DNA from: an uncultured Acidimicrobiales bacterium
GTDB lineage: Bacteria; Actinomycetota; Acidimicrobiia; Acidimicrobiales; SHLQ01
Assembly (NCBI GenBank): GCA_964517125.1
Contig: CAZFBD010000006.1
Coordinates: 27,429 to 91,428 of the forward strand
Direction of reading: 5' to 3'
Length of the DNA: 64,000 nt
The notes beneath the pieces are model-generated. The model was not told where the DNA came from. It made no database searches and saw nothing but the letters and a program-made list of their open reading frames with translations. Below, in pieces: positions 10,726-60,513 of this stretch. The position numbers and the translations under genes were made by a program. Numbering within the stretch: the first letter of the stretch is position 1; every line of letters begins with the position of its first letter.

Positions 10726-10764
10726 ACCATGCCGGTCTGCCGTAGATAAATCAACCCCTATTTA
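10726..10764 (-). promoter_or_regulatory. conserved extended promoter (minus strand)
   Basis: Reverse complement reads gtaaATAGGGG-TTGATT-17 nt-CATGGT-7 nt-ATG. Confidence 0.65.
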
Positions 10765-11517
10765 CTACGAGGGACGGGAAGCCTCTTCGCAGATCCAGCA
10801 ACGGCCCGGCCGACCCCAATGCAAATCAGGTTCCGCTACGTACATCAATCGATGACCGGTAACGATCCAACCGACTACGCCGACCTCATCGCTAACGATC
10901 CTCGCCGTAGCGTCTCCGTCTCCGGCCGACGGGTAGTTTCCAGCGGAGACCGGCCGGTAGAGCCCGTAGTGAGCCGGTTCGGCTCGGATGGATTCAGCCC
11001 TCAGAGATCCGTCGGCGAGGCCAGCGAGAAGAGAAGCGGAGCGCTGCAGATATCGAGAGTAGGCTTCGTACTCCTTCGCCTCCCGGCCGAGATGCTTCGA
11101 TACCTCTTCCCACTTCTGGATAGCTCCTACGTCGAAACGCTCGTCGTTGGTAGTCGCCAAACGAGAGGCGGCGGACTGGAGCCATTCCCGAGCGACGCGA
11201 GAAGCGTTAGGAGTAGCGTCCTCGATAGAGGTAAGGCTTCGCCGGAGAAGCGACCCTCTCACCGTCCAGCGGTCTTCGCCTTCCGGGCTTAGCGTCGCCG
11301 AGAGGATGTAGGGAGTCCCGTTGATCTTGACCCAATCGGGATCGACTCCGAAGCCGTTGCCGAAGTGAATACAAGGAGTCCCGTCAGCGAGCCGAGAGAA
11401 TCGGTAGTGAACATCCCCCGAGCACCGGAGCGCCGTTAGGGGGAGGACGCCCGAAGGCTCCGTAGTATCGAGAGTTTGCATACGGGTAACCATAGTCGGG
11501 CGTTTAGCTAAAGTCAT
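10765..11517 (-). CDS. hypothetical protein
   Basis: Track ORF 10765..11559. First ATG (MTLAKRP..) is at 11517. Start is uncertain because no clear ribosome site is present. Transcribed divergently from gene 11674. Confidence 0.5.
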   Translation of the reverse strand: MTLAKRPTMVTRMQTLDTTEPSGVLPLTALRCSGDVHYRFSRLADGTPCIHFGNGFGVDPDWVKINGTPYILSATLSPEGEDRWTVRGSLLRRSLTSIEDATPNASRVAREWLQSAASRLATTNDERFDVGAIQKWEEVSKHLGREAKEYEAYSRYLQRSASLLAGLADGSLRAESIRAEPAHYGLYRPVSAGNYPSAGDGDATARIVSDEVGVVGWIVTGHRLMYVAEPDLHWGRPGRCWICEEASRPS

Positions 11518-11606
11518 AGTTAGAAGTCGAGAGATCCACGAGCCGGGCAAGCCGATCAACTAAGATCCGGTAGTAGTCGCCGTGACTACTTTGGTCGACT
11601 AGGTTG

Positions 11607-11635
11607 GTAATTACTTACGGTAATTACGTAATTAG
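11607..11635. promoter_or_regulatory. three GTAATTA(C/G) boxes, candidate operators in a divergent control region
   Basis: GTAATTAC at 11607 and 11620 (8-bp palindromes) and GTAATTAG at 11628. The last abuts the AGGGG-TTGACT promoter. Confidence 0.4.
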
Positions 11636-11668
11636 GGGTTGACTAGGTACCCTCGCGTCGCACAACAT
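11631..11668 (+). promoter_or_regulatory. conserved extended promoter
   Basis: attAGGGG-TTGACT(11639-11644)-18 nt-CAACAT-5 nt-ATG 11674. Confidence 0.6.
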
Positions 11669-11673
11669 TGAGT

Positions 11674-11991
11674 ATGGACGAAACCCTATGCAAGCACGAT
11701 CTCCCTACGTTCTGCTGTACGTACTGCATGACTAAGCCCAAAGCCGCCCCGATGTCTCTCGAAGAGAAGTTCGCCGACGGCAAGGGCGATACGCTGGTCG
11801 AGTACGTAAGCGAAACGACCGGGCTAACCATCTTCAAGTGGAAGGCTCCGCTCGAAGCGAAGATTCGCTACGTTCTGGTCGAGCCGAGCATGGCTCCTTT
11901 CCCGGTCGGGATATTCAACCTCTTGCGAGAGGCGAAGGAGCAAGCCGTGGCGATAGCTTTCGGTTCCGAAGCGGGAGAGACGGCCGCTTGA
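11674..11991 (+). CDS. hypothetical protein, leaderless
   Basis: Track ORF 11668..11991 (TTG) trimmed to ATG 11674, directly after the promoter -10. N-terminal Cys cluster CKHDLPTFCCTYC. Confidence 0.6.
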   Translation: MDETLCKHDLPTFCCTYCMTKPKAAPMSLEEKFADGKGDTLVEYVSETTGLTIFKWKAPLEAKIRYVLVEPSMAPFPVGIFNLLREAKEQAVAIAFGSEAGETAA

Positions 11992-12314
11992 GTTTCCGAT
12001 TGGTCGAGCGCGGATTCTGGATAGCCCAATTCGAGGATCTCGTCTCCGGCTCCCACGTTCTCTTCCTTCGCCAGGTCGGCGACGGCTGGATAGCGGAGCA
12101 CTGGGGATGCCACGACCGAGGGGATACGAAGGACCGGATCGATCGAGGAGAGCCGATACTTGAATCCGCTCGCCTCGCCCGGCTCAAGCTAGAGCTACAA
12201 GCCGAGCATCGCTCATCATGGGGCATGTCGGATCGCCCGGCTACCTTCCTAGAGAAACGTCTAGCGAGGACGCTCGGGACGAAGGCGAAACGAGAGATCG
12301 GGACGGTTAGGTAA
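11988..12314 (+). CDS. hypothetical protein
   Basis: Track ORF 11838..12314 trimmed to TTG 11988 (TTGA overlap with upstream stop). Start is uncertain. Confidence 0.45.
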   Translation: MSFRLVERGFWIAQFEDLVSGSHVLFLRQVGDGWIAEHWGCHDRGDTKDRIDRGEPILESARLARLKLELQAEHRSSWGMSDRPATFLEKRLARTLGTKAKREIGTVR

Positions 12315-12350
12315 TTAGGGGTTGACGTAATACCTATCTACCCTTAAGCT
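12313..12350 (+). promoter_or_regulatory. conserved extended promoter
   Basis: aattAGGGG-TTGACG(12322-12327)-17 nt-TAAGCT-6 nt-ATG 12357. Confidence 0.7.
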
Positions 12351-12356
12351 TGAACC

Positions 12357-12955: not shown

Positions 12956-12997
12956 TCATCACCCCGATAGGTCGGATCTGTAGTAGAATTGGGTATC

Positions 12998-13021
12998 GAG
13001 GTCCTCCCCTTCGGGGACCTC
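12998..13021 (+). terminator. hairpin terminator
   Basis: GAGGTCC(T)CC...GGGGACCTC, about 9 bp with one bulge, 40 nt after the stop at 12955. Confidence 0.45.
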
Positions 13022-13050
13022 CCTAACCTCCCTAACCTCCCTAACCTCCC
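13017..13050. repeat. 9-bp tandem repeat CCCTAACCT x3 (3.8 copies counting partial ends)
   Basis: acct-ccctaacct-ccctaacct-ccctaacct-ccc read directly. Intergenic, between the hairpin and the start of gene 13068. Confidence 0.85.
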
Positions 13051-13067
13051 GACCCGAAGGAATCAAT

Positions 13068-13505
13068 TTGAAGACCTCAACTATTGTCGAGCTTCTCCTT
13101 GCGTTTACCCTGGCGATGTTGGCCCTCCTCTACTTCGTGGGTCGCTCCGAAGAACTAGGCGCAGAGGAAGAGTCCCTTACCGTCTCGACGCTCCCGGCGA
13201 CGACAACTACCGAGCCGAAGGAGTTCCCCTTCGAGGTCTCCGGTGAGTGTGTCTTTAACGAGCTTCTCTCGATGTGGCAATTCGAGGGAGACGTTACGAA
13301 CTCCTCCGACGAAGCCCTAGACATAATCGTCTTGCTCGATATGGGTATCGATGAACCCTCCGACCTTCCGTCCTTGACGGTCGTGCGGGAGGTACCGGCC
13401 GGAGCCACGGTCGACTTTACGCTTAGCGACTTCGCTCGCGACGCCGGAGAGTCCGCCGACGCTGGCGTATGCGAGAACCCGAGAGCGAAGAAGATCGGTA
13501 ACTAG
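13068..13505 (+). CDS. secreted or membrane-anchored protein
   Basis: Track ORF, TTG start with GAAGGA upstream. N-terminal hydrophobic segment IVELLLAFTLAMLALLYFV. Confidence 0.55.
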   Translation: MKTSTIVELLLAFTLAMLALLYFVGRSEELGAEEESLTVSTLPATTTTEPKEFPFEVSGECVFNELLSMWQFEGDVTNSSDEALDIIVLLDMGIDEPSDLPSLTVVREVPAGATVDFTLSDFARDAGESADAGVCENPRAKKIGN

Positions 13506-13537
13506 GGGTTGACTTATCTAAGGGCTGGGATCATGCT
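13503..13537 (+). promoter_or_regulatory. conserved extended promoter
   Basis: ctAGGGG-TTGACT(13509-13514)-17 nt-CATGCT-6 nt-ATG 13544. Confidence 0.65.
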
Positions 13538-13877: not shown

Positions 13878-13910
13878 TCGCGTCTCGGGATAAATCTTAG
13901 GGAATTACTA

Positions 13911-13947
13911 AATAGGGGTTGACGTATAGACCAAGCGGGCTTATCGT
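13911..13947 (+). promoter_or_regulatory. conserved extended promoter
   Basis: aatAGGGG-TTGACG(13919-13924)-17 nt-TATCGT-7 nt-ATG 13955. Confidence 0.7.
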
Positions 13948-14460: not shown

Positions 14461-14889
14461 ATGCAATCCAGCAAGGCGAAGAAGAAGTCCGAGGATCGCG
14501 CTAGAGACATCGAGTGGATAACGGTCCGGCTAGTCCCGGCTTCTCGCTGGCCCGAGATCGCCGACTACGTACCGGAGGAGCATCGGTCCGATCGGCTAGT
14601 TGTCCCGGCCGAAGCGTGGTACCCGAGCTGCGACTCCCATCCAGGTGATAGGTCGGCTTGCCTCGCCGCCTTCTGGATTCCCTGCGAGCAACCCGGCCGA
14701 TCGATGGATCGCCATACGTGGCGACCTCACGAGGACGGATGCGACGTTTGCGCCGAATTCATAGCGGCTCAACCTCACGAGTTCGGCTCGTGGCCGGAAG
14801 AGGACTGGAACAACCTCCCGTCCTTGGAGTTCGGCTCGTGGTTCGGGCCGGTAGCTCCCAATCCTAAAGAATTGCTAAATAGGGGTTGA
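14461..14889 (+). CDS. hypothetical Cys/Trp-rich protein
   Basis: Track ORF 14374..14889 trimmed to ATG 14461 to avoid overlap with 14190..14444. Its TGA stop is the GA of the next promoter's TTGACG. Confidence 0.5.
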   Translation: MQSSKAKKKSEDRARDIEWITVRLVPASRWPEIADYVPEEHRSDRLVVPAEAWYPSCDSHPGDRSACLAAFWIPCEQPGRSMDRHTWRPHEDGCDVCAEFIAAQPHEFGSWPEEDWNNLPSLEFGSWFGPVAPNPKELLNRG

Positions 14890-14914
14890 CGTAATGCCCA
14901 ACCTTCTATAGGGT
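14876..14914 (+). promoter_or_regulatory. conserved extended promoter
   Basis: taaatAGGGG-TTGACG(14886-14891)-17 nt-TAGGGT-6 nt-ATG 14921. Confidence 0.7.
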
Positions 14915-15330: not shown

Positions 15331-15340
15331 ATAAATTCCT

Positions 15341-15378
15341 AAATAGGGGTTGACGTAATGCCGAGGGCTAGGCATACT
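15341..15378 (+). promoter_or_regulatory. conserved extended promoter
   Basis: aaatAGGGG-TTGACG(15350-15355)-17 nt-CATACT-7 nt-ATG 15386. Confidence 0.7.
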
Positions 15379-18124: not shown

Positions 18125-18814
18125 TTGAGTGGTTGGGCGAATAGGATCGTCGGCTTTGAGCCGGAGGTAAAACCGTCGGAGTTGATCCCTCATCCGAGGA
18201 ACCCAAGACTCCACGGCGATAACCAGCGGGCGGCGATGGGCGAGACGCTGGCTTCGATCGGCTGGACTACGCCGGTAATCGCCAACCAGAAGACCAACCG
18301 GATAATCGACGGCCACATGCGAGTCGAAGAGGCCGCAGCAAACGGCGAGACCGTTCCGGTTATGTGGGTCCATCTGAATACCGAGGAAGAAGAGCACGCA
18401 GCCCTTGCGACCCTCGATCCGTTAGCGCTCATGGCTACCTTCGACGATCAGATCTTGACCGATCTAGTCGAGATAACTGACTCGGTGCCGAGCGGAGTTA
18501 GCGACCTCCTGGCCCAGATAGCGAACTACGATCCTGTCGAAGAACTCGAAGAGATAGCCGGGAGGGTTCCCGCTCCGGTCGCCGACCTGCCGATGCCGGA
18601 GGTCGACCTAACGTCGAGAGGCTCAGAGATCTCGGTCCCGAATCCGGCCGAACGGCGCGACGCCTGGGCTGAGGCCGGAGTGCGTTCGATTATCCTCCCC
18701 TTCGACGCCGATACCTACAAGCTAGTGGTCGAGTCCTTCGCCGAAGCTCGGGAGCGCTTGGGCGTCGACTCCAATGCCGAAGTGGTAGTGAGTCTTCTCG
18801 GCGTGGAGCAATGA
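18125..18814 (+). CDS. ParB-like N-terminal (ParB/Srx) domain protein
   Basis: Track ORF, TTG start with GAAAGG upstream. Motifs IPHPRNPRLH and IIDGHMRVEEAAANGETVPV. Confidence 0.7.
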   Translation: MSGWANRIVGFEPEVKPSELIPHPRNPRLHGDNQRAAMGETLASIGWTTPVIANQKTNRIIDGHMRVEEAAANGETVPVMWVHLNTEEEEHAALATLDPLALMATFDDQILTDLVEITDSVPSGVSDLLAQIANYDPVEELEEIAGRVPAPVADLPMPEVDLTSRGSEISVPNPAERRDAWAEAGVRSIILPFDADTYKLVVESFAEARERLGVDSNAEVVVSLLGVEQ

Positions 18815-19641
18815 AAGAGATCGAGGTCTCTCGATCCGACTTCAAGCCGGTACGAGGGGAAGCCGAATACGCGGAACCTCCAGGTAAAGACTCCGTCGTC
18901 TTGACGGATCATCTCGGCATCGACGCCGAGACGGGCTGTCCGGTGATAGCTCATTCGACGGTTGACTTCGGCGAGATCGGCGAAGCTCTCTTCGAGTGGG
19001 CTCCGCATATGCCTTGGAAGGGCGAGGGCTCCTCCAAGAACGAAGTCCGACTCTCCGGTATCAATAACGCTCACGTCATCTTCGGCTATGCGGCCCCGGT
19101 CCCTATGCGTCGGCGATGGGCGGCTTCCTCTACGGCTTTCAACCGGGAGTATCCGAAGGCGGCTTACGCCTTGGAAGTCCTCGCCGCCCAGTGCTCTGAT
19201 TGGTTCGAGGCCAACCTTCCCGAAGCGTATGAGAATCACCTACAAGCTATCGACGGTCTTCACGACGGTTGGAAGCTAGCCGGGCGAGCGCCTTGGACTT
19301 CCGGGATCATCAACAAGTCGGCAGCCCTCCGCTACCACCGGGACTCCGGGAACTCCGTAGGATCCTGGTCCGCGATGATCGTTATGAGGAAGGGCGTCGG
19401 CGGCGGGCTCCTCCACGTAAGAGACCTTGACGTCTACCTAGCGTGCGACCACATGAGCCTTTCGATCTTCGACGGACAGGCCCTAACCCACGGCGTTACT
19501 CCGCTGGTCCATAGCGAGGACCCCGAAGAGATTCGGATATCGATCGTCTTCTACACCAAGACCGGAATCGTTAGGGCCGAAGCTCCGGGAGACGAGATAA
19601 TTCGCGGGCAGATCCGAGCATCGAGGGGCATCGAAGAATGA
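18811..19641 (+). CDS. 2OG-Fe(II) dioxygenase, TET/JBP-like
   Basis: ATGA overlap. Motifs YHRDSGN (HxD), LTHGVTPL (second His) and RISIVFY (RxS 2OG arginine), in the order and spacing of double-stranded beta-helix dioxygenases. The wording resembles TET catalytic cores as I recall them. Confidence 0.7.
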   Translation: MKEIEVSRSDFKPVRGEAEYAEPPGKDSVVLTDHLGIDAETGCPVIAHSTVDFGEIGEALFEWAPHMPWKGEGSSKNEVRLSGINNAHVIFGYAAPVPMRRRWAASSTAFNREYPKAAYALEVLAAQCSDWFEANLPEAYENHLQAIDGLHDGWKLAGRAPWTSGIINKSAALRYHRDSGNSVGSWSAMIVMRKGVGGGLLHVRDLDVYLACDHMSLSIFDGQALTHGVTPLVHSEDPEEIRISIVFYTKTGIVRAEAPGDEIIRGQIRASRGIEE

Positions 19642-20558
19642 CGATCCTTGAGGAAGCGGGAGCGCTCGGAGAAGACTTCGTCGCCTTCGGAACCGTTCAC
19701 CGAGAGACGAGAGACATCGATCCGATCTACCCGGTGATGCGACATCTCTTCGTCTTCGCTCCTCACCTCTTCCCTACCGAGCGCTCAAGGGTCGAGTTCA
19801 CCTTCGCTTACGTGACTTGGTACAACCTCCCGACGGCCCTCTCGCTTTGGGTCCAAGGGTTCCGCTTCTCCGACACAAAGATCGGCGAGGTCGACTACTG
19901 GCCGACCGGCGTAGAGCGTCGAGGCCATCGCAACCCGGCCGCCACAAACGCTCACATCGACTCGCTCCGTAGTCTCGATGACGCCTTCTCCAACGGCCTT
20001 CTAGGTTGGCTCTCTTCGGGCCAGCAAGAGGACCCCTTCGAGGAGTGGAGGCGACTGCAAGAGGTCTTGGTCGAGCCGTGGGGCAACGGTCGATGGGCCG
20101 CTTTCAAGACGGGCGAGGTCTTGATCGAGGCGAACAACTGGAAAGCGGAGCCGACCGACGCGGGGCATAAGAACTCAACCGGCCCTCGAAGAGGTCTGGC
20201 CGACCTCGCTCCGCAAACCGTCGGCTACTCGATAGCGGAACTAGACCTAATCACCGAAGAGCTTCGCCTCGATATGGAGGAGCAAACCGGTGAGCGCTGG
20301 AGGGTCGCCGAGATCGAGACGGTCCTATGCGACTTCCATTCGATGAGGAAGGGCGGCTACTACGTCGGTCACGACATCGACTTACTCCTCGCTCAACTAG
20401 GCGGCGAGAGGGTCGATCAGGTAGCTCGGAATCTCATCCTCAACGCTCGGTCGCATTGCTTCCCGAGTTGGCTTCTCGGCGAGATGCAAGGTTGGGATGG
20501 GGTTCGGCGAGATCTCAAGAAGCTCTATCGAGACGACGGAGGTATCGGCTGGTGGTAG
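19638..20558 (+). CDS. hypothetical protein, possibly aGPT-Pplase-like DNA base-modification transferase
   Basis: ATGA overlap. Motifs WGNGRWAAFKTGE and ETVLCDFHSMRKGGYYVGHD. The family assignment rests on context and weak recollection only. Confidence 0.6.
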   Translation: MTILEEAGALGEDFVAFGTVHRETRDIDPIYPVMRHLFVFAPHLFPTERSRVEFTFAYVTWYNLPTALSLWVQGFRFSDTKIGEVDYWPTGVERRGHRNPAATNAHIDSLRSLDDAFSNGLLGWLSSGQQEDPFEEWRRLQEVLVEPWGNGRWAAFKTGEVLIEANNWKAEPTDAGHKNSTGPRRGLADLAPQTVGYSIAELDLITEELRLDMEEQTGERWRVAEIETVLCDFHSMRKGGYYVGHDIDLLLAQLGGERVDQVARNLILNARSHCFPSWLLGEMQGWDGVRRDLKKLYRDDGGIGWW

Positions 20559-21424
20559 TAGTCGAAGGAATGGGCTGGCTCGGCGTTGTCGCCGGGCGGA
20601 TACTCGACGAGCTGGGCGTCGACTGGTGTTGGTATGACACCGACTCGCCGGTCCAATCCTGGAGAGCGTCGACCGGGATCGTCTATCCCGGAGGCGATGA
20701 GATGGACCGTTCTAACTACGATCGGTGGATCGCCGAACTCGCCGAAGGGCGATGGATCGACGATGCGGTAGAGCCGGTCGAGTTCTGGTTTGCTCACCTC
20801 AACCCTCCACACGGCGGCAAGTACTCCCTCTCGGCTGACCTTGGGTCTATCCGGCGCGGATCCCTCCCGGCCGTGATGGTCAACGTTCCGGAGGTCGTCG
20901 CTCGGCACCGAGAGCTATGGGCTGATCGTCGAGTAGAACCGAGGCAGCCCGACGTAATCGCCCACGGCTTCCGAGGGCGGATCGTTAGATGGGTCTGGGG
21001 CTACTCGGTAAAGGTTCGGCTTGAGTTCTCCGATGAGCTTCGTAACGCTTCGGAGTCCGGAAGGCTTTCTCTCTACGGCCGAGACGGTCGTTTCAAGATC
21101 GTCTATGCCCACCTAGGAGCCGGTAGCGATTACTGGCGAGTCGGCTCGTCTTTGATAAGTCAGAAGGTCCCGAAGGAGCTAGACGCCGGGAAGCACTTCG
21201 ATTCTTGCCGAGCATCCTTCGAGAAACTCTTCGGAGATCACGCTCAAATTGTCGAGCAGCTTGAAGAGCCGGTTCACGGCTGGAGGCCGAAGCGTTCCGA
21301 CGAAGACGACGACCGCTGTATCGTCGATCCAACCGGCGTTATCCACTTCCCTTCGGTCGCCTACTCCGGCGTTCGCTGGACGCCTTCGATCGCCGATTCG
21401 TTCCGAGAGGTAATACCGAGATGA
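20552..21424 (+). CDS. FAD-dependent oxidoreductase (DAO/glycine-oxidase-like)
   Basis: Track ORF 20327..21424 trimmed to GTG 20552 (GGAGG 9 nt upstream, 7-nt overlap with upstream gene). N-terminus VVVEGMGWLGVVAGRILDELGVDWCWYD is a Rossmann GxGxxG..D fold. C-terminal motif is HGWRPKRSDED..P.G. Confidence 0.6.
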   Translation: MVVVEGMGWLGVVAGRILDELGVDWCWYDTDSPVQSWRASTGIVYPGGDEMDRSNYDRWIAELAEGRWIDDAVEPVEFWFAHLNPPHGGKYSLSADLGSIRRGSLPAVMVNVPEVVARHRELWADRRVEPRQPDVIAHGFRGRIVRWVWGYSVKVRLEFSDELRNASESGRLSLYGRDGRFKIVYAHLGAGSDYWRVGSSLISQKVPKELDAGKHFDSCRASFEKLFGDHAQIVEQLEEPVHGWRPKRSDEDDDRCIVDPTGVIHFPSVAYSGVRWTPSIADSFREVIPR

Positions 21425-21936
21425 TCTTCGTCCACCTAATGGGAGTCCCTGGAGCCGGGAAGTCGACGGCCGTCCGCAAAGCTCTAGCCAATACCGAGCG
21501 GATCGAGCTAGACGTAGGCGCTCCCTTCGCCGTAGAGACCTTCGCTTACGAGGGCAAGACCATCGCCCATCTAGGTTCAACCGAGGGCGAGTATCCGGGA
21601 ACCGACCGACTCTCGATGGCGGTCTCACCTCAAGTCGTAGCGTGGCTCGCCGGAGGTCCGCCCGTTGACGTAGTCCTCTCCGAGGGGGACCGGTTGACGT
21701 CGAGGAAGTTCTTCGACCAAGCCGACAAGATCGGCGTCGAGCTTCGAGTAGTACTCCTCGCCGTCTCCGAAGAGGTCGCCCAACAGCGCCGAGATAAGCG
21801 AGGCTCGAACCAGAGCGCGACTTGGCTCAAGGGTCGGACGTCTAAAGTAGGCAACCTCGCCGATCGAGTAACGAGAAGGATTGGCACCCTAGAGCGAGCG
21901 GACAAGGTTCTACTAGAGGAGCTAAGCCGTGAGTGA
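21421..21936 (+). CDS. P-loop kinase-like protein
   Basis: ATGA overlap. Walker A HLMGVPGAGKST within a 171-aa kinase-sized protein. Confidence 0.65.
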   Translation: MIFVHLMGVPGAGKSTAVRKALANTERIELDVGAPFAVETFAYEGKTIAHLGSTEGEYPGTDRLSMAVSPQVVAWLAGGPPVDVVLSEGDRLTSRKFFDQADKIGVELRVVLLAVSEEVAQQRRDKRGSNQSATWLKGRTSKVGNLADRVTRRIGTLERADKVLLEELSRE

Positions 21937-22314: not shown

Positions 22315-23856
22315 ATGTCCGGCGCTCCGGATACCCGACCTCCCGAGCTACTAGAAGGACTACCGGTACCCGACGAGACCTCGGTCGAAGCCGTCAGCAC
22401 TGAAGGACTATCCCCTAGGGAGCACGAGCTAGCCGTACGGATCAACGCTCTTGAGGAATACTCCGACGTCGAGAAGTGGGTTCTATTCCGACTCGCCAAG
22501 TGGCGACATATCGACGCTCGACCCGAGCAACTTATGCCGGTCGACGCTCAATACTTCTTCGCTGTGGGAGGTCGCGGGTCCGGCAAGACGAGAGCCGGAT
22601 CCCAAACCCTCTTCGAATGGGCATGGGAGTTGCCCGGTACCCGCTGGGCTTGCGTCGGACCGACCAGGCTCGCCGTTCGAAATCTAATGTTCCTCGGTCC
22701 GTCGGGTCTTCGAAACGTCATCCCGGATCAAGCTCTCGAAACGGGCGACTGGGACGGCTCCTTCAATGAGACTCGCCTAGAGCTTCGCCTAGCGAACGGC
22801 TCGGTCATTACCGGCTACTCCTCCGAGCGTCCCGGTCGAATCCGAGGCGACAACCTTTCGGGATTCTGGGGAGACGAGCCAGCCGAGTGGAAGGACTCAA
22901 GCCAACTCCCGCTCGAACTCAACACGACGTTCTCAAACCTTATGCTCGCCGTCCGGGAGAATACCGAAGGCGGTACGCGAGGGATCATCACCGGGACTCC
23001 TACGCCCTGCCCGCTTCTCGCCGGTAACGCCCAACACGAGATCCCCGGCCTCCTCACGGGGATGCAAGAACCTCCAATGACGGTCGTCCGCATGTCGACT
23101 CGGGACAATCTAGAGAATCTCGACGCGAGCTTTACCCGGCTCATCATGTCGCTCGAAGGAACTCGCCTTGGTCGCCAAGAGATCGATGCCGAACTTCTTA
23201 CCGATATCGAAGGAGCGGCTTGGAAGAACCATTGGATAGTCGTCGACGACACGGGCCTAACGCTCCAATTCGACCGCATGGTAATCGCCGTCGACCCTTC
23301 TGGTAGCGACGGCCAAGGCGACGGAGACGAAGTAGGCATCGTCGTTTGTGGGCTTTCTGACGGCCAGTACTGGGTACTCGAAGACCTCTCGGGAGGATGG
23401 GGGCCAGGCGAGTGGAGCGAATTGGTATGGGACGCTTACAAGCGATGGGAGCCGCAGTCCTACCGGGCTCCGCATATCAAGGTCGAAGGCAACTACGGGA
23501 AAGAGCTAGCGGCTCAACCTCTCCGGGTAAGCCAAGACCGAGTTCCCGGAATCGACATCGACATCAAGCCGGTACGCGGGTCGAAGTATCAACGGGCGAA
23601 AGCAACCGCCCAGATCTACGAGCCGACGTTGCAGAAGGCCACAGGCGTACGAGTCCGTCACGCCGGGCGCTTCCACCTCCTGACTAGCGAGATGACTACC
23701 TTCTTGCCCGAGAGCGGTTGGTCGCCGAACCGAATGGACGCTCTTACGCTCGGGATGAATTGGCTCGCCGAATTCGACGAACTACCTCAAGTAGCCGGGA
23801 GCCACGGGACCACCCTCGGCACGCTCCTCGGTCGTCACTCAGGCGGGTATCGCTAG
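22315..23856 (+). CDS. terL: terminase large subunit
   Basis: 513-aa track ORF. Walker A GGRGSGKTR, Walker B-like FWGDEPAEW, and nuclease-domain acidic motifs (VIAVDPSGSD). Confidence 0.85.
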   Translation: MSGAPDTRPPELLEGLPVPDETSVEAVSTEGLSPREHELAVRINALEEYSDVEKWVLFRLAKWRHIDARPEQLMPVDAQYFFAVGGRGSGKTRAGSQTLFEWAWELPGTRWACVGPTRLAVRNLMFLGPSGLRNVIPDQALETGDWDGSFNETRLELRLANGSVITGYSSERPGRIRGDNLSGFWGDEPAEWKDSSQLPLELNTTFSNLMLAVRENTEGGTRGIITGTPTPCPLLAGNAQHEIPGLLTGMQEPPMTVVRMSTRDNLENLDASFTRLIMSLEGTRLGRQEIDAELLTDIEGAAWKNHWIVVDDTGLTLQFDRMVIAVDPSGSDGQGDGDEVGIVVCGLSDGQYWVLEDLSGGWGPGEWSELVWDAYKRWEPQSYRAPHIKVEGNYGKELAAQPLRVSQDRVPGIDIDIKPVRGSKYQRAKATAQIYEPTLQKATGVRVRHAGRFHLLTSEMTTFLPESGWSPNRMDALTLGMNWLAEFDELPQVAGSHGTTLGTLLGRHSGGYR

Positions 23857-24095
23857 CCGACCGTTACGCCAAGGTCCTTGGCCAAAGCGGCAAGGAGGGC
23901 GTATGCGTCGGCCTCTGGGATCTCAATAGCGGTAGCCTGTTGCCCGTCTCCGCCGATCTCGACCGTCACCCGACCCTTGTAGCCGTAGTCCTCGGTATTA
24001 CCTTCGGCCTGAACCGTTATCTCTAGGTAGGAGAATTCGCCGGTCTTCTGGCCGCCTGGGGTTTCTTCGGTCTGGTTGTACTCGTAGGTGCTCAT
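23853..24095 (-). CDS. hypothetical acidic protein, leaderless
   Basis: Track ORF. ATG 6 nt after the -10 of a minus-strand promoter. Its stop overlaps the terL stop within the GCTAGC palindrome. Confidence 0.6.
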   Translation of the reverse strand: MSTYEYNQTEETPGGQKTGEFSYLEITVQAEGNTEDYGYKGRVTVEIGGDGQQATAIEIPEADAYALLAALAKDLGVTVG

Positions 24096-24101: not shown

Positions 24102-24135
24102 ACCATAATCCGCCTTCGGTATTAAAGCAACCCCT
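24102..24135 (-). promoter_or_regulatory. conserved-type promoter (minus strand)
   Basis: Reverse complement reads cAGGGG-TTGCTT-17 nt-TATGGT-6 nt-ATG 24095. Confidence 0.6.
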
Positions 24136-24137
24136 GA

Positions 24138-24473
24138 TTACTTATTTAGTCCGGAGAGCAGGAGGGTCACGATCTTCTTTACGTCGGCATCTTCGTAGAT
24201 GAGGAACATCGCCCCTTCGGGTCCGTGTTGCCCGTCGAGTCCCGGATCGAGGTTCACCGGGTAAGAGGCTCCGGTCTCCGCCATCTCCTGAAACCGCTCG
24301 ATCATTTGGGCGGTACTATCCGCCTCAACTTCGTTGAAGACCTTCGTATCGAAGTCGGTCCCGGCCGTCATGCCTTTGACTCGCAACGGGCCGACGTTCC
24401 AAAGCCCGAGGATCTCGGCGAAGACGGTTCCTTTCTCAAGCTCCAGGAATTCAGGACGGCGGCATATTCTCAT
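24138..24473 (-). CDS. hypothetical protein
   Basis: Track ORF. TATGAT lies 6 nt upstream of the ATG on the minus strand, suggesting a leaderless start. Confidence 0.6.
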   Translation of the reverse strand: MRICRRPEFLELEKGTVFAEILGLWNVGPLRVKGMTAGTDFDTKVFNEVEADSTAQMIERFQEMAETGASYPVNLDPGLDGQHGPEGAMFLIYEDADVKKIVTLLLSGLNK

Positions 24474-25521: not shown

Positions 25522-26089
25522 AAATTTCTTTGAAGTATTTATCCCACTAGCCAAGAGGTCTGAGGGCGCTAGGGGATCGGAGGGAAGCGAGAGGGGACTA
25601 GCTTTCTCGCGCCCGTCGAGGCATAGTTGTCGACCAACGCTCCGCGACAACCGAGAGATCCCCTACCGTACGGGATCGGCCAGAACGGAATAACTGGCTC
25701 AACAAACCCCCTGCCGACACAAGTGGGAACTAAGCGGCCACCGAGTGAGTGAGCAAGTAAAGAGGGCAGAGGCCCTTGGACACTCCGACGATCGAGACCG
25801 GGTAACCTGCGGCCGTCGGCGATCGGTTCTTCGGAACCCATCGGGAGCGAGTGAGTCACACTTACGCCCTTCGATTTGAGGGGAGAGGTTGAATGGTCCT
25901 CTCCCTTGGCTGCGAAGGATTCGTAAGGTTCACAGAACGGATCGGTTCACCTCAGCGTTGCCCCTTGATTAGCGAAAGCGACGAGCGACGGGTAATACCG
26001 AAGGTCTAGCGTTCCAAGGTCTAGGTTTGTTCTACTGCAAGAGCACACCTAGCCCTGACGCTCTGCTCAGGGCTCTGGGTAATCCCTGA

Positions 26090-26182
26090 CGGTCGGCGTC
26101 TTCTAAGAGGGTGGGGCCGCCCCAGCGGCCTCAAGCGTCAGCTGATGGATGAAATCCATCCCCTCTTAGAAGACGCCGACCG
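26090..26182. repeat. 22-bp perfect inverted repeat enclosing two sub-hairpins
   Basis: CGGTCGGCGTCTTCTAAGAGGG (26090-26111) and CCCTCTTAGAAGACGCCGACCG (26161-26182). The 49-nt loop contains TGGGGC-CG-CCCCA and GATGGAT-GAA-ATCCATC. Confidence 0.85.
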
Positions 26183-26263
26183 ACGATGAATTGGGCATGA
26201 GTCTAATACCCGCTGTCAAGAGGGGAGGATAGGGAGAGTATAGACCAGCCCTAGGGTTAAATC

Positions 26264-26318
26264 AATAGGGGATATAAGTAATTACTAGTTGACTCATAGG
26301 GTAAAGACGGACTAAAGT
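26264..26318 (+). promoter_or_regulatory. promoter with split upstream element
   Basis: aATAGGGGatataaGTAATTACtag-TTGACT(26289-26294)-18 nt-TAAAGT. Leader of about 30 nt, then GAAGGG and ATG 26355. Confidence 0.5.
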
Positions 26319-26354
26319 ACTAGGTAAGAAGCAGTCATCGAGAAGGGTATTCAG

Positions 26355-29855: not shown

Positions 29856-29864
29856 GAATTTCTA

Positions 29865-29901
29865 ATTAGGGGTTGACTTAAGATCCGGGAGGGATCAAGA
29901 T
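29865..29901 (+). promoter_or_regulatory. conserved extended promoter
   Basis: attAGGGG-TTGACT(29873-29878)-17 nt-CAAGAT-6 nt-ATG 29908. Confidence 0.65.
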
Positions 29902-31873: not shown

Positions 31874-31901
31874 GACGGAGGAGTAAGAAGGTTCTAAGTC
31901 G

Positions 31902-31936
31902 CTCCCGGCCGGGTATCCAATCCGTCCGGCCGGGAG
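31902..31936 (+). terminator. hairpin terminator (11-bp GC-rich stem)
   Basis: CTCCCGGCCGG-13 nt-CCGGCCGGGAG, 29 nt after the stop at 31873. Confidence 0.55.
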
Positions 31937-32068
31937 AGTGGTAGCCGCTAGGTGTGCGTCCTTCGTAAGGGGATGACACCGGGTAGGGCTAGCTCTTTGC
32001 TCAGGGGCTAGACCGGAGTTCGATTCTCCAAGTGGCACTAATCGATAGCTAAGGAAGGAGGAAGGTCA

Positions 32069-33632: not shown

Positions 33633-33641
33633 GAATTTGTA

Positions 33642-33679
33642 ATTAGGGGTTGACGTAATCACGACGACGGAGCTAGGGT
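33642..33679 (+). promoter_or_regulatory. conserved extended promoter
   Basis: attAGGGG-TTGACG(33650-33655)-18 nt-TAGGGT-7 nt-ATG 33687. Confidence 0.65.
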
Positions 33680-36442: not shown

Positions 36443-36452
36443 ATAAATCTGT

Positions 36453-36490
36453 AAATAGGGGTTGACGTATTCGGTACGGCAAGGCATGAT
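36453..36490 (+). promoter_or_regulatory. conserved extended promoter
   Basis: aaatAGGGG-TTGACG(36462-36467)-17 nt-CATGAT-6 nt-ATG 36497. Confidence 0.7.
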
Positions 36491-36727: not shown

Positions 36728-36734
36728 AAATTCT

Positions 36735-36773
36735 TAATTAGGGGTTGACGTATTGACCCCTAGGAAGTAGCTT
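36735..36773 (+). promoter_or_regulatory. palindromic promoter variant (TTGACGTATTGAC)
   Basis: TAGGGGT-TGACGTATTG-ACCCCTA inverted arms. TTGACG(36745-36750)-17 nt-TAGCTT. About 55-nt leader, AAGGAA site, ATG 36833. Confidence 0.6.
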
Positions 36774-36832: not shown

Positions 36833-37060
36833 ATGTATCAGATTTCAGAATTCGTAAGTCTCACCAGCGCAACCGGTCACTACTCCCGGTTCGCCAACCA
36901 GGGCGGAAGTCTTTCGACTCTCCGACTGAACGAGGTAACCACGCAGCCCGAATTTGAATGCGGCTGCGGCGCTCGCAATTGCGGTTGCGACTCTTGGCTC
37001 GACGATCTCCGGACGTCAGCCGAGCAGATGCGATCCTCCACACGAGGGCGGATCGCCTAG
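36833..37060 (+). CDS. hypothetical protein
   Basis: Track ORF. AAGGAA ribosome site. Confidence 0.6.
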   Translation: MYQISEFVSLTSATGHYSRFANQGGSLSTLRLNEVTTQPEFECGCGARNCGCDSWLDDLRTSAEQMRSSTRGRIA

Positions 37061-37072: not shown

Positions 37073-37101
37073 CGGGAGCGTCGGCTAGGTCGGCGCTCCC
37101 G
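37073..37101 (+). terminator. hairpin terminator
   Basis: CGGGAGCG-13 nt-CGCTCCCG followed by GCTTTCATC. Confidence 0.45.
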
Positions 37102-42909: not shown

Positions 42910-42936
42910 CGTCTACGGCTCCGTGCAATCCCTCTT

Positions 42937-42972
42937 TAGGGGTTGACGTAATCCGGGGCTAAGGGCTAGGAT
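42937..42972 (+). promoter_or_regulatory. conserved extended promoter
   Basis: tttAGGGG-TTGACG(42943-42948)-18 nt-TAGGAT-6 nt-ATG 42979. Confidence 0.65.
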
Positions 42973-44728: not shown

Positions 44729-44816
44729 AGGGATATCGGTCCCCCTATTTACAAATGTCTAAGGCGTGAGTACCCTATCCTTAATACTCCGCCCAAATCC
44801 CGAAGGATGAGTCCCC

Positions 44817-51650: not shown

Positions 51651-51660
51651 AGGTATAACT

Positions 51661-51699
51661 CTCTAGGGGTTGACGTATTGACCCCTAGAGAGCTAGGCT
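51661..51699 (+). promoter_or_regulatory. palindromic promoter variant (TTGACGTATTGAC)
   Basis: CTCTAGGGGT-TGACGTATTG-ACCCCTAGAG has 10-bp perfect inverted arms. TTGACG(51670-51675)-18 nt-TAGGCT. About 25-nt leader, GAAAGG site, ATG 51730. Confidence 0.6.
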
Positions 51700-53736: not shown

Positions 53737-54421
53737 GGGTCACACCGACTACAAGACAAACGGGCCTCTGATTCACGACGTCTTCAAGCTCTACCGAGAG
53801 CTAGCTCCGATAGATAAGAAGAAGAGCAAGGCCGATCCGAGGAAGTACGCCGAAGGAGATCTAGTCATCGACTGGACCTACGGGCTCGGCGATTTCTGGA
53901 CCGTCTACCGGCCGAAGAATCTGGTCACCAACGACCTCTACGAAGAGAAGACTTCGCCGGATTTCCGGATCAGCTACACCGAGCCGATTACGGATCACAC
54001 GCTAGAGCGACTCGGAGGGCGGCCTCGATGGTCCGTCTACGACCCTCCTTACCAGCTCACCGGTACCGCCACCTACGACCGGTACGGAGTGCGACGAAAG
54101 CTCTCGGTCAACGACCGCATCGACATGATCCGCATGGGAGCTTTCAATATCGCTTCGGTTACCGACTCGATCCTGTGTATCAAGCTCCAAGATCAGACGG
54201 CGAGCAACCAGCCCTACCGGCTCCACAACCTCGCCGAAGAGGTCCTTCCGGAGGGTTGGGTATTCGACTCCGAATGGTCGATGCCTTCGAACCGAGTCCA
54301 GCCCGAGCTAGGCAAATCGCAACGACGACCGAACAACAACCGCTCGGTCCTCCGTGTTTACCATCGTCGAGGTCGCGCTTGGAAGCGTGACTTCTGGAAA
54401 CCGGATGAACCGAAATCTTGA
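53726..54421 (+). CDS. DNA amino-methyltransferase (N6-adenine or N4-cytosine, DPPY type)
   Basis: Track ORF, GTG start with GGGGGAGG upstream. SAM-binding-like VIDWTYGLGDFW, followed by the catalytic motif VYDPPYQL. Confidence 0.65.
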   Translation: MRIKGHTDYKTNGPLIHDVFKLYRELAPIDKKKSKADPRKYAEGDLVIDWTYGLGDFWTVYRPKNLVTNDLYEEKTSPDFRISYTEPITDHTLERLGGRPRWSVYDPPYQLTGTATYDRYGVRRKLSVNDRIDMIRMGAFNIASVTDSILCIKLQDQTASNQPYRLHNLAEEVLPEGWVFDSEWSMPSNRVQPELGKSQRRPNNNRSVLRVYHRRGRAWKRDFWKPDEPKS

Positions 54422-54447
54422 CCGTTACCCCTATTTAACTATAGGCT
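54418..54447 (+). promoter_or_regulatory. promoter with inverted ATAGGGG element in the spacer
   Basis: TTGACC(54418-54423)-gttaCCCCTATTTAact-TAGGCT. About 55-nt leader to ATG 54503. Confidence 0.45.
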
Positions 54448-54502: not shown

Positions 54503-54790
54503 ATGAGTAAGCGACCAGAGGATCGACTTCCCCCCGGCCGACCGGTGAAGCTTCCGACCGAAGACCAGAAGAAGCTACTTGGGAAGCTCAGCAAGGCTCA
54601 CGAGAAGATGCTCAAGAGGAACGAAGAGTACGAGAAGGCAATCGCCGAGCGAGCCGCCATCGTCCTCGAATGCGATGCCGCCGACGTCGGCCCGTCCGCT
54701 ATGGGCCGAGCGCTCGGGCTCACGACCGCTCGAATGGGTGCGCTCCTTAGCTCAGCCAAGAACAAGGCCAAAGAGGATGCGGCCTCCTAG
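54503..54790 (+). CDS. HTH DNA-binding protein
   Basis: Track ORF 54488..54790. ATG 54503 is preferred (AAAGGA 6 nt upstream). HTH-like PSAMGRALGLTTARMGALL. Confidence 0.55.
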   Translation: MSKRPEDRLPPGRPVKLPTEDQKKLLGKLSKAHEKMLKRNEEYEKAIAERAAIVLECDAADVGPSAMGRALGLTTARMGALLSSAKNKAKEDAAS

Positions 54791-58275: not shown

Positions 58276-58297
58276 ATCGATTCAGGGTTACTGGATC

Positions 58298-58343: not shown

Positions 58344-58392
58344 TTCGCGTCCGGATCCGACCCCGAAACGTCTCCCGTTAAATAATTGGGTA

Positions 58393-58421
58393 TTGACATA
58401 TCTAGGGGTTGCGATTATACT
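58393..58421 (+). promoter_or_regulatory. near-consensus sigma70/SigA-type promoter
   Basis: TTGACA-17 nt (contains tAGGGGTTGCG)-TATACT. About 45-nt leader with a TTAGG..ACGTCG/CGACGT..CCTAA hairpin, GAGAGGA site, TTG 58474. Confidence 0.6.
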
Positions 58422-58473
58422 TGTTAGGCGGTACGTCGTATAAGAAGCGACGTCCTAACGAGAGGAACCCAAC

Positions 58474-59076
58474 TTGAGAGACTCACAACGGGCGAAGGTC
58501 TACAGGGCCGAGCGAGTAGCGGCCGAAGAGCTAGGGCTCTACTTCTACTTCGCCGACGAAGACATAGCGGAGATGCCCGAGCTAACGGCCTTCGTCAACA
58601 AGACGCTCGACTCGAAGCGAACCCGCAAGGCTTTCGCCGGGGCGAGAAGCTTCGCTATGCCGGTCATCAAGGACGGCCGACGGAACCGATCGGCTTCGGC
58701 GAACGCCTACGAGATGGTCTTCCCGAGATGGAGTCGGAGTCGGCTCGTCGTGATGCACGAGCTAGCTCATACCCTCAATAGCCGGATACGGAGCAACGAC
58801 GTCCTACCAGACGGGACCTCGAATCCCGGACTAGTGAAGTGGGGACGGGAAGCGCCGGGCGTCTACGAGTGGAAGCACGCTCCGCACGGCTGGCGATTCT
58901 GCATGATCTACCTAAGGCTCGTAGAGATCCACATCGGCAAGACCGAAGCCGGGGTCCTTCGCGAGGCGATGAAAGGGGAGGGCGTCAAGTTCAGGAAGCC
59001 TCGCCAGATCTCGCCGGACTCGCGCCGAGAGCTAGCCGAACGAGGGTCTAAAGCGTTGGCGGTCGCCAATGGGTAA
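58474..59076 (+). CDS. HExxH zinc metallohydrolase-like protein
   Basis: Track ORF, TTG start. Motif VVMHELAHTL. The N-terminal SQRAKVYRAE recalls the actinobacterial putative-metallohydrolase family (recollection only). Confidence 0.55.
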   Translation: MRDSQRAKVYRAERVAAEELGLYFYFADEDIAEMPELTAFVNKTLDSKRTRKAFAGARSFAMPVIKDGRRNRSASANAYEMVFPRWSRSRLVVMHELAHTLNSRIRSNDVLPDGTSNPGLVKWGREAPGVYEWKHAPHGWRFCMIYLRLVEIHIGKTEAGVLREAMKGEGVKFRKPRQISPDSRRELAERGSKALAVANG

Positions 59077-60208
59077 GACGGTAGGCATAGTCGGCTTCTC
59101 CGGTTCTCCGAGGCTCGCTTACCGCGTACCTAAGAACGGAGACTATTCGCTCCTCGGTAAGCGACCGGTAAGCCCGGCCGGAACGATCGCCCTTTGGAGA
59201 GGGATCCAGTTGATGCTGGGCTCCAACTTCCATACGACGGACGGGAGGAATTGGCCGACCCAGATCCATAGCAACTACGCAAGGGAGTCGGCCCTCCGGG
59301 ATCGGCTCCATATCGGAGAGAACATCATCATTGATGTTCAGTCGGTAGCGAACTCGGTAGCCGGGGAGATCCTCGGGCCGAAAGAGCTAAAGGTTAGCGA
59401 GGTTCTCGAAACCGGCCAGCAGGTCGTCCGGCCGGAACTCGGAGACCTTCCCCTCTTCTGGAATCCTCCCGCCGAGACCTTCACCCTCGCGTGGACCATC
59501 CCTCCGGAGATCGTCGGCCTCTTCAACGCTTGGCCCTCTTTCACCGGGAAGCCCGGCCACACCGCCGTCTACGCTCATTGCACCTTCGACGGTACTCCCG
59601 CCGAAGGACAGGACTCGTCGATGGCTTTCTTTACGGCGAAGATCTGGATCTACGGAAACTGGACTCCGGGAGGTCTCCCGTTCGGGCCGATCGCTATCAT
59701 CTCAGCTCACCTCAAAGACGGGCAGGTCTGGTTTGAGGGAACCGACGAGCCCACCTACCCGGTCTTGACTCCGTGGGGAGACCCGAACGGATCGACTGAC
59801 GAGCGAACCCTCGCCCTCTACAAGAAGAACCCGACTCCGACGGTTATCCCCTTGGCGGAACCTATGGCGGTCGTTAACGAGACGATGACTCTCCTCGGTT
59901 GTCGGAACGTCGTAACCCAAGCCGCTACCGGTAAGCAATCGAAGATCGCCGAGCGAGCGAGGAAGAAGGCCGGACGTAGTACCGGGCTCCACGTAATCAA
60001 GGTTCAAGGCGGGAGGTCGAGGACCGAGGCCAGCGGTCGAGTCGCTTCGGGCGAACGGGTACGAGCCTGGAACGGACGGCGAGGCGGCTATGCCCATTAC
60101 GGAGTCAACGGGGCCGGGAAGCTCTTCGGCAAGTACACGTGTTCGGTATACCGGCCTATGATTCCGCCCGATGAAGACGCAACCGTGATGTGGGAGGTAA
60201 CCCGATGA
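59069..60208 (+). CDS. hypothetical protein
   Basis: 379-aa track ORF, 8-nt overlap. No motif recognised. Confidence 0.6.
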   Translation: MGKTVGIVGFSGSPRLAYRVPKNGDYSLLGKRPVSPAGTIALWRGIQLMLGSNFHTTDGRNWPTQIHSNYARESALRDRLHIGENIIIDVQSVANSVAGEILGPKELKVSEVLETGQQVVRPELGDLPLFWNPPAETFTLAWTIPPEIVGLFNAWPSFTGKPGHTAVYAHCTFDGTPAEGQDSSMAFFTAKIWIYGNWTPGGLPFGPIAIISAHLKDGQVWFEGTDEPTYPVLTPWGDPNGSTDERTLALYKKNPTPTVIPLAEPMAVVNETMTLLGCRNVVTQAATGKQSKIAERARKKAGRSTGLHVIKVQGGRSRTEASGRVASGERVRAWNGRRGGYAHYGVNGAGKLFGKYTCSVYRPMIPPDEDATVMWEVTR

Positions 60209-60471
60209 TGAGCGAACCGATAGACCCGACTCTTATTGAAGCGACGCTACGAGCCGTCGACTCGATAGAGCACCTAGTCCAAGGCAGGGAGGGGAAGCCG
60301 GACTACGTAGCGACTGCGACCCGAGAGGAACTCATAGCGGTGAACGGCGTGCTCGCCGGGATGCTCCTAGCGGCGATCTTCGAGAAGGCGGCGAGCACGG
60401 GTATAGGGCTCGACCAATTCGTGGCGACCCTTCGCCAGAACGTAGAGAGTCGGGCGGCCGGGAACAATTAA
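60205..60471 (+). CDS. hypothetical protein
   Basis: Track ORF 60190..60471 trimmed to ATG 60205 (ATGA overlap). Confidence 0.55.
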   Translation: MMSEPIDPTLIEATLRAVDSIEHLVQGREGKPDYVATATREELIAVNGVLAGMLLAAIFEKAASTGIGLDQFVATLRQNVESRAAGNN

Positions 60472-60476
60472 TACCT

Positions 60477-60513
60477 CTAGGGGTTGACGTAATCCCCCGG
60501 AAGGGTCTATGGT
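60477..60513 (+). promoter_or_regulatory. conserved extended promoter (leadered)
   Basis: ctctAGGGG-TTGACG(60484-60489)-18 nt-TATGGT. About 50-nt leader with a GCTACC/GGTAGC hairpin, AAGGAG site, ATG 60572. Confidence 0.65.

Follow-up and report, generated by a model that had tools for sequence, protein, structure and literature searches.

Short, nearly identical DNA blocks recur along the 64,000-nt window analysed here (the whole stretch of contig CAZFBD010000006.1, part of which is shown above), which is phage DNA of about 59% G+C. These sites are very probably promoters of the sigma-A type, leaderless in 12 copies, where transcription would start on the A of the ATG codon and give the small gene downstream an mRNA without a ribosome-binding site. 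We propose that the blocks are promoter cassettes read by the host RNA polymerase carrying its primary sigma factor (sigma-A), and lean, with modest conviction, towards a composite explanation for them in which polymerase recruitment, copying or homogenisation among sites and an optional hairpin all contribute. We infer promoter activity, start sites, upstream contacts and the mode of spread from the sequence.

The Repeated Block and Its Probable Promoter Elements

The sequence TAGGGGTTGAC occurs in 13 exact copies in the window, all on the + strand, against 0.02 expected under a first-order Markov model (given by the T of TAGGGG: 11633, 12316, 13503, 13913, 14880, 15344, 29867, 33644, 36456, 36739, 42937, 51664, and 60478). 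With three near variants, TAGGGGTTGAT at 10760(-), CAGGGGTTGCT at 24136(-), and TACTAGTTGAC at 26283(+), the family counts 16 members in the window; one more, the 17th, is located just past its end. Under a scoring matrix derived from the exact copies, the 16 sites reach 12-47 bits and the three variants 12.4-24.1 bits; a block-shuffled control gave a mean of 0.3 sites above 8 bits and a top score of 21.8 bits in a single shuffle. Because this best shuffle falls within the range of the variants, their membership rests on context as well as on score. All 18 of the -35 hexamers listed in the initial annotation are present in the sequence, where they had been described as a near-identical family of at least 18; 16 of them belong together in the window, and the other two, at 54418 and 58393, lack the upstream AGGGG and the A/T block.

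The consensus of the 16 sites is aAAT-tnn-TAAwTAGGGGTTGACgTAwT, nearly invariant over 26-32 bp, and similarity ends abruptly downstream. As we read its anatomy, the cassette would comprise an A/T-rich block of stop codons, an invariant TAGGGG at about -41 to -36, TTGAC(G/T)TAwT, a free spacer of 17-18 nt, and a loose yAnnnT. TTGAC is exact in 14 of the 16 members, the remaining two having TTGAT and TTGCT. The rigid part is the -35 with the 15-20 bp around it, while the -10 keeps only A-11 and T-7 and is weak by consensus, its first base being C in six of the 12 leaderless copies.

The association of the block with a -10 element is strong. A yAnnnT follows at 17-18 nt in all 13 GGGG-TTGAC sites vs. 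3 of the 110 TTGAC sites found elsewhere in the window (Fisher p = 5e-15), and yAnnnT with an ATG 5-7 nt later is found at 10 of these 13 sites vs. none of the 110 (p = 2e-12). Counting the two minus-strand variants, the leaderless layout (ATG 5-7 nt past the -10) comes to 12 sites, the number originally proposed. All 16 members lie between genes and face the next one, with the two minus-strand copies preceding minus-strand genes, and an SD-like (Shine-Dalgarno) sequence precedes 3 of the 12 leaderless genes vs. 60 of the 104 other genes. A generic sigma-70 scan found no overall enrichment, and seven of its nine hits over 10-64 kb are listed sites (six family members and 58393). The suggestion of an actinobacterial sigma-70/sigma-A leaderless geometry agrees with the consensus -35, the 17-18 nt spacer, the A/T at key -10 positions, and the ATG at the expected start. 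In M. tuberculosis, 73% of mapped primary starts are preceded at 7-12 bp by TANNNT, leaderless mRNAs are common, and there is no -35 consensus; the spacing between -10 and start in the phage fits that of such actinobacterial leaderless promoters (PMC3898074).

A/T clusters are found at about -43 to -45 and -49 to -51. Most copies have TAAw (-45 to -42) and AAT (-51 to -49), whereas three members carry CTCT(T/C) in their place. The UP-element subsites of E. coli are A/T-rich tracts centred near -42 and -52. In position the clusters would fit the UP-like contact suggested earlier, and, by analogy with E. coli, the promoters may recruit polymerase through such upstream contacts. These A/T bases also serve in stop codons: TAA, TAG, and TGA of TAAwTAGGGGTTGA fall in three different frames, by which the block stops all frames, and upstream genes have their stops inside the block or at most 14 nt upstream of it in 11 of 16 cases. 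Recognition of the cassette also corrects gene starts, as false TTG/GTG starts of open reading frames (ORFs), inside the -35 or ahead of the true ATG, occur at 10754 and 33681; the former had already been recognised as a start on the TTG of the -35, and the initial annotation named another at 13919.

Pairs of copies have identical stretches of 18-25 nt in common that extend into the otherwise free spacer (25 nt for 36739/51664 and 24 nt for 14880/15344). Because up to 25 identical nt, spacer included, are shared in this way, the pairs argue for cassette copying and not for convergence alone. Two processes would jointly account for the uniformity of the family: selection for strong recruitment of polymerase by way of the -35 and upstream A/T contacts, and copying or homogenisation among sites. 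Gene duplication as the source of the repeats was ruled out, because proteins encoded in the window are not paralogous to one another. The flanks (ATTA...TAAT) show no consistent dyad symmetry, concordant and discordant pairs being about equal by eye on the alignment.

TAGGGGT in Spacers and Predicted Hairpins

The 7-mer TAGGGGT is observed 21 times vs. 5.2 expected. When copies fused to TTG are left out, TAGGGGT or its complement ACCCCTA lies in the -35/-10 spacer of five of seven leadered promoters vs. none of 12 leaderless promoters (Fisher p = 0.002), in inverted orientation at 36762, 51687, 54433, and in the 17th cassette, and in direct orientation at 58403. In three of the leadered copies, the C-tract in the spacer could pair with the upstream G-tract, such that RNA reading through from upstream would fold into a hairpin enclosing the -35 and the cassette would act as a combined terminator or insulator and promoter. 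Hairpins enclosing the -35 are predicted at 51659-51692 (-27.4 kcal/mol, z = -4.5) and in the 17th cassette (contig L137, 14135-14183; -28 kcal/mol, z = -5.1); the hairpin at 36739 is weaker (z = -1.75), and one outside the family, at 54418, has z = -3.4. Three leaderless copies and 60478 gave no hairpin when folded (z from -1.6 to +0.7), and a short AATTyCT/AGGGGTT hairpin considered for the leaderless copies was not significant (z from -0.7 to -1.6).

Placement Among Orphan Genes and Occurrence in Relatives

The 12 leaderless copies all lie in segments (6.7-15.8, 23.9-25.1, 25.5-38.7, and 42.7-44.8 kb) that find no counterpart in syntenic DNA of L129, the closest relative, which was compared over 21 kb and whose terminase is 67% identical. 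Conserved in the same order in L129 are the tail genes, the reverse-strand block, the terminase, a pair of genes for 458- and 377-aa proteins, two large proteins, and the single-stranded DNA-binding protein (SSB). Most cassettes occupy islands of orphan genes that are specific to the lineage and are flanked by conserved core genes. Genes after leaderless copies have no detectable paralogues or family matches, and the one downstream gene tested, coding for the 187-aa protein after 33644, has no homologue among 5.8 billion proteins besides near-identical copies. The regulon had been described as one of small, moron-like genes; this stands insofar as the leaderless copies lie in islands before unrelated genes, but copies also head longer SD-led operons and a probable non-coding RNA locus, not small genes only.

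No copy of the motif is present in L129. Exact-pattern scans of IMG/VR returned single chance hits only for a 14-mer and none for the 18-mer TAANTAGGGGTTGACGTA, a blastn search with the 32-nt motif consensus against 50,697 phage records gave nothing relevant, and a literature search by motif string gave primers only. Two more distant relatives are L130 and L132, whose terminases show about 45% identity and one of which comes from the same series of samples; they contain a few GGGGTTGAC promoters and no repeated family. Their form is GGGG-TTGAC(A/T)-17/18-yAnnnT, some with C-tracts or CCCC(A/T)(A/T)GGGG palindromes in or around the spacer. A 10-bp palindrome, CCCCATGGGG, flanks the -35 on both sides at 15503-15536 in L132, and another, CCCCTAGGGG, lies in the spacer of a leaderless promoter at 13784-13830 in L130; both resemble operators or the arms of hairpins, akin to the TAGGGG element. 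Because these distant relatives have GGGG-TTGAC promoters, the G-tract beside the -35 predates the phage, and amplification into a uniform family is specific to its lineage.

Leaderless and Leadered Copies

Seven of the 12 leaderless copies are clustered at the left of the window. The first, at 10726..10771(-), has a variant -35 (TAGGGG-TTGATT, 17 nt, CATGGT) and an ATG at 10718 that begins gene 10533..10718(-). The other six, all on the + strand, are 11622..11668 (TAGGGG-TTGACT, 18 nt, CAACAT; ATG 11674), 12305..12350 (TTGACG, 17 nt, TAAGCT; ATG 12357), where the upstream gene ends on the TAA of the block, 13492..13537 (TTGACT, 17 nt, CATGCT; ATG 13544), where it ends on the TAG of TAGGGG, 13902..13947 (TTGACG, 17 nt, TATCGT; ATG 13955), 14869..14914 (TTGACG, 17 nt, TAGGGT; ATG 14921), where gene 14461..14889 takes its TGA from the TTGACG hexamer as first noticed in the initial annotation, and 15333..15378 (TTGACG, 17 nt, CATACT; ATG 15386). 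Farther on, the variant 24102..24147(-) (CAGGGG-TTGCTT, 17 nt, TATGGT; ATG 24095) precedes gene 23853..24095(-), and four + strand copies follow at 29856..29901 (TTGACT, 17 nt, CAAGAT; ATG 29908), 33633..33679 (TTGACG, 18 nt, TAGGGT; ATG 33687), the one ahead of the 187-aa orphan, 36445..36490 (TTGACG, 17 nt, CATGAT; ATG 36497), and 42926..42972 (TTGACG, 18 nt, TAGGAT; ATG 42979), where CTCTT replaces the upstream TAAwT. Within the cluster, the intergenic region 12956-13067 holds a tandem repeat of three CCTCCCTAA units at 13018-13044, with a GC-rich hairpin, GAGGTCCTCCCCTTCGGGGACCTCC, before it.

The copies at 26283, 36739, 51664, and 60478 and the 17th copy would instead be followed by a leader of 24-55 nt with an SD site or by a non-coding RNA locus; all four in the window are on the + strand. 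The degenerate member 26272..26318 (TAATTACTAG-TTGACT, 18 nt, TAAAGT) has TAGGGT in its spacer, TAGGGG 17 nt upstream, and a leader of about 30 nt to gene 26355. The cassette 36728..36773 carries the inverted repeat TAGGGGT-N10-ACCCCTA around its -35, a TAGCTT -10, and a leader of about 53 nt to gene 36833..37060. No intrinsic-terminator-like hairpin in the window is stronger than the one directly 3' of this gene (37073-37101; a stem of 13 bp with 10 G-C pairs), and the 75-aa gene, with its own hairpin cassette and terminator, looks like an insulated single-gene unit. The cassette 51653..51699 lies inside a hairpin, its -35 enclosed by the 15-bp stem 51659..51692, with a TAGGCT -10 and a leader of about 24 nt to gene 51730. 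That at 60467..60513 (TTGACG, 18 nt, TATGGT) has CCCCC in its spacer and a leader of about 52 nt with AAGGAG ahead of gene 60572..61795.

Two further sigma-70-like promoters on the + strand are without the upstream block. The one at 54418..54447 (TTGACC, 18 nt, TAGGCT) has an inverted ACCCCTA in its spacer (54427..54433) and a leader of about 50 nt to gene 54503..54790; the one at 58393..58421 (TTGACA, 17 nt, TATACT) has a direct TAGGGGT at 58403..58409 and is the best generic sigma-70 match of the window (11/12). An isolated inverted upstream half-block, TTTGTAAATAGGGGG, with no TTGAC, is found in intergenic DNA at 44741..44756(-), before gene 44817.

The 17th cassette (position 14147 of L137) is about 3.2 kb past the window end, after a Ro60/TROVE gene and followed by about 450 nt without an ORF. 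The Ro60/TROVE-vWA gene, the cassette, and the ORF-free stretch together span L137 12495-14576, about 1.6-3.6 kb past the window end. A sub-threshold match to YrlA (Y RNA-like) lies at L137 14504-14576 (E = 7e-4, 32 bits vs. a gathering score of 69), with three weak tandem matches upstream of it, and the segment may be a phage Ro60/Y-RNA module. It is probable that the family also drives at least one non-coding RNA locus. At the cassettes themselves, Rfam detected no RNA family.

The Phage Genome and Its Host

Proteins of the window recur on metagenome contigs of 103,542 and 103,582 bp, which puts the genome size at about 103.5 kb and the share covered by the window at about 62%. Two adjoining contig stretches were added, for a total view of about 82 kb, to which the searches for regulatory genes reported here refer. 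Contigs of the same phage overlap by 10.9 and 12.4 kb in the two cases compared and are 100% identical there, and a megablast search of 20 kb against the 50,697 phage records gave nothing relevant. Nearly all genes went without a family assignment in Pfam records and Pfam/PHROGs scans. Landmarks include tail genes at 1-6.7 kb, a large terminase gene at 22315-23856, and a sole tRNA-Cys (GCA) at 10092-10164, in 454 nt of non-coding DNA past the tail-proximal genes and before the seven-cassette cluster.

No cultured phage is close. The terminase shares about 33% identity with its counterparts in phages of Microbacterium, Curtobacterium, Arthrobacter, and Gordonia; the amidase endolysin has 270 matches, almost all from phages of Propionibacterium/Cutibacterium, Arthrobacter, Rhodococcus, and Corynebacterium; and relatives of gene 60572 are chiefly in mycobacteriophages. 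Because the relatives of these three are actinophages, the host is very probably an actinobacterium. The phage also encodes a bacterial-type SSB and has AAGGAG-type ribosome sites.

Just 5' of the terminase gene, at 18125-21936, is a gene set typical for thymidine hypermodification of phage DNA, comprising a ParB-like protein (18125-18814), a Tet/JBP dioxygenase (18811-19641), a PF18724 "ADDT" protein (19638-20558), which we take to be an amino-acid:DNA transferase, and the P-loop nucleotide kinase 3 (21421-21936). The module has no counterpart in the contigs of relatives, save for one weak Tet/JBP match in L127. A modified T within the promoter block could alter recognition of the block. Together with the size of about 103 kb, the gene set suggests a lytic phage.

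Two independent assemblies of about 103.5 kb break near 26099-26146, one beginning at 26099 and the other ending at about 26146. The break region is inside an 833-nt non-coding stretch (25522-26354) with three extra TAGGGG copies and the degenerate promoter 26283, and may be the genome end or merely the point where a circular assembly was broken. In another non-coding intergenic region, 31874-32068 (195 nt), a tRNA-like T-arm, GGAGTTCGATTCTCC, is present at 32015-32029; it was not called by ARAGORN or Rfam and could represent either the remnant of a tRNA or an RNA domain resembling one.

Alternative Explanations for the Conserved Block

Several points count against the explanation that we propose. 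To our knowledge, sigma region 4 and the alpha C-terminal domains do not read a G-tract at -36 to -39 or a TAwT past the -35, and because no such contacts are known, polymerase contact alone fails to account for the invariant TAGGGG and TAwT. Hairpin formation leaves TAGGGG at the leaderless copies unexplained as well, because a significant hairpin is found in only 3-4 of about 19 promoters. The direct TAGGGGT in the 58393 spacer and the lone inverted copy at 44747 look more like an independent protein-binding element. Finally, the nearest non-identical terminase among 5.8 billion proteins is 67% identical, and there is no close relative in which recombination at the cassettes could be followed. 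For TAGGGG and TAwT, three non-exclusive accounts remain: cassette copying, a role as the G-arm of the hairpin, and a separate DNA-binding factor. The first two are plausible explanations of TAGGGG that the initial annotation had not considered.

The third account, in its full form, makes TAGGGG(T) and the A/T flank the site of a dedicated regulator, phage- or host-encoded and centred near -41, that would activate or repress leaderless promoters from beside the -35, repress leadered ones from the spacer, and thereby switch the two classes. We regard this as a serious rival, although on balance the less likely one. It would explain why TAGGGG is invariant where a primary sigma needs nothing, why TAGGGGT is in excess and, within spacers, confined to leadered promoters, why it occurs in both orientations and with positions that shift by 3 nt, why it stands alone at 44747(-), and why a copy precedes 26283 by 17 nt; monomeric phage repressors that read asymmetric, genome-wide repeated sites are known (PMC9283540). 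However, the precomputed Pfam records for about 82 kb of the genome hold no sigma, helix-turn-helix, or WhiB hit, and Pfam and PHROGs searches with 20 small or reverse-strand proteins found nothing convincing. A weak lead is the basic 95-aa protein encoded at 54503-54790, downstream of the 54418 promoter, whose C-terminal segment, SAMGRALGLTTARMGALL, is helix-turn-helix-like by eye. This candidate is an orphan in homology searches, and its single-sequence model (pLDDT 79, pTM 0.33) has only non-significant fold matches (E >= 2.5), many of them DNA-binding proteins. In addition, hairpin formation would also account for three of the four inverted copies in spacers, and with a -35 already at consensus an activator is not obviously needed. 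More speculatively, the reader of TAGGGGT might be a small phage protein or a host factor contacting sigma region 4, with the position of the site setting opposite regulation. If so, a single factor would provide a temporal switch between leaderless orphans on one side and SD-led operons and the Ro60/Y-RNA-like locus on the other, in an actinophage with hypermodified DNA.

The remaining explanations dispense with the host primary sigma or with initiation as the main role. Sites for the immunity repressor of a temperate phage (cluster A type) would serve mainly for silencing, and the block resembles L5-type operators and stoperators in being asymmetric, present in many copies (more than 20 in the L5 type), co-oriented with transcription, and placed at promoters and in short intergenic gaps (PMC9283540); it also overlaps a -35-like hexamer. 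Stoperators mostly lack promoter elements, whereas every exact copy here is a full promoter, all 13 with a correctly spaced -10 and most with an ATG at the predicted start, neither of which a stoperator needs. With no integrase, repressor, or partition pair seen in about 82 kb, and the lytic habit suggested by the hypermodification set and genome size, we consider this reading very unlikely. It is equally improbable that a phage-encoded or alternative sigma factor reads a longer -35 element, GGGGTTGAC. The block extends further than recognition by a primary sigma requires, and some actinophages, such as those of Microbacterium cluster EI, encode sigma factors (PMC7302621), but TTGAC, 17-18 nt, and (T/C)AnnnT are the primary-sigma pattern, no sigma-family Pfam hit was obtained in about 82 kb of the genome, and genes needed right after injection must use the host enzyme. 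An archaeal host, for which TAAT at about -29 to -26 would be the TATA box, the G-rich part the B recognition element, and TTGAC a coincidence, is scarcely credible. TAwT does sit where an archaeal TATA box would relative to the leaderless ATG, and the tailed halovirus HF2 has repeated intergenic blocks of 29-58 bp that carry promoters (PMC8707807). The HF2 motifs are AT-rich, taken as promoters, and read by archaeal machinery, whereas the phage described here has bacterial hallmarks: the SSB, the ribosome sites, actinophage relatives of endolysin, terminase, and gene 60572, and TTGAC with A-11 and T-7 invariant at bacterial spacing.

Comparison with Known Systems

As proposed host sigma-A promoter cassettes, the repeats would be a new example of a known phage strategy; the orphan-gene islands, the three-frame stops, and the spacer TAGGGGT go beyond the initial annotation. 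The host-takeover module of SPO1 has a family of early promoters whose consensus extends beyond the hexamers. Early promoters of T4 are similarly many host-sigma copies with extra conserved upstream A/T positions (PMC2988021), and both systems resemble the present one in having clusters of small genes, each with its own promoter. Neither consensus has an invariant G-tract beside the -35, and in the cassettes described here it is the -35 that is rigid and the -10 that is loose.

Repeated intergenic motifs are also common in phages of actinobacteria. They include a 17-bp palindrome alongside SigA-like leaderless promoters in cluster O (PMC4351075), an 18-bp asymmetric motif in Microbacterium cluster EC and others in clusters EG, EI, and EF (PMC7302621), and start-associated sequences in cluster K (PMC3203893). 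Like the cassettes, these are found in actinobacterial hosts, in 5-34 copies in short gaps, and usually co-oriented with genes. However, they lie 14-30 bp before start codons near ribosome sites or are palindromes apart from promoters; none is a complete -35/-10 promoter repeated at least 16 times, and there is no sequence similarity.

The closest described system is that of the PeSL cassettes of T4-like phages, in which upstream genes have their stops in an A/T block joined to a strong sigma-70-like promoter, and polyG/polyC stem-loops may overlap the -35 or lie in the spacer (PMC2839356). About 50 copies per genome occupy hyperplastic regions before orphan genes, where recombination between copies shuffles genes (PMC2839356, PMC4122927). 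Four traits are shared: many near-identical short cassettes, upstream stops in an A/T block, a strong sigma-70-like promoter, and variable regions before orphan genes; polyG/polyC stem-loops at the -35 or spacer are present here in a minority. The hosts differ, being Gram-negative bacteria for PeSL and an actinobacterium here, the sequences are unrelated, and most copies here have neither stem-loop nor SD. A strong hairpin was found in two of the eight cassettes folded (51664 and the 17th). PeSL are defined as mobile by recombination between copies, visible as insertions, deletions, and replacements that the cassettes bound in related genomes; the nearest terminase to that of the present phage is 67% identical. 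With a stem-loop in a minority only and no close relative for such a comparison, the family is not classed as PeSL, although it would work like PeSL.

The 12 leaderless and 5-7 leadered promoters with one common upstream block form a natural set for the study of how the -35 and the DNA upstream of it are used by actinobacterial polymerase; host promoters mapped in this phylum lack a conserved -35 (PMC3898074). For actinobacterial genetics, strong and compact promoters could be drawn from the block. Overall, the likeness to PeSL suggests that a design of stops, promoter, and optional hairpin before orphan genes extends beyond the T4-like phages of Gram-negative bacteria.

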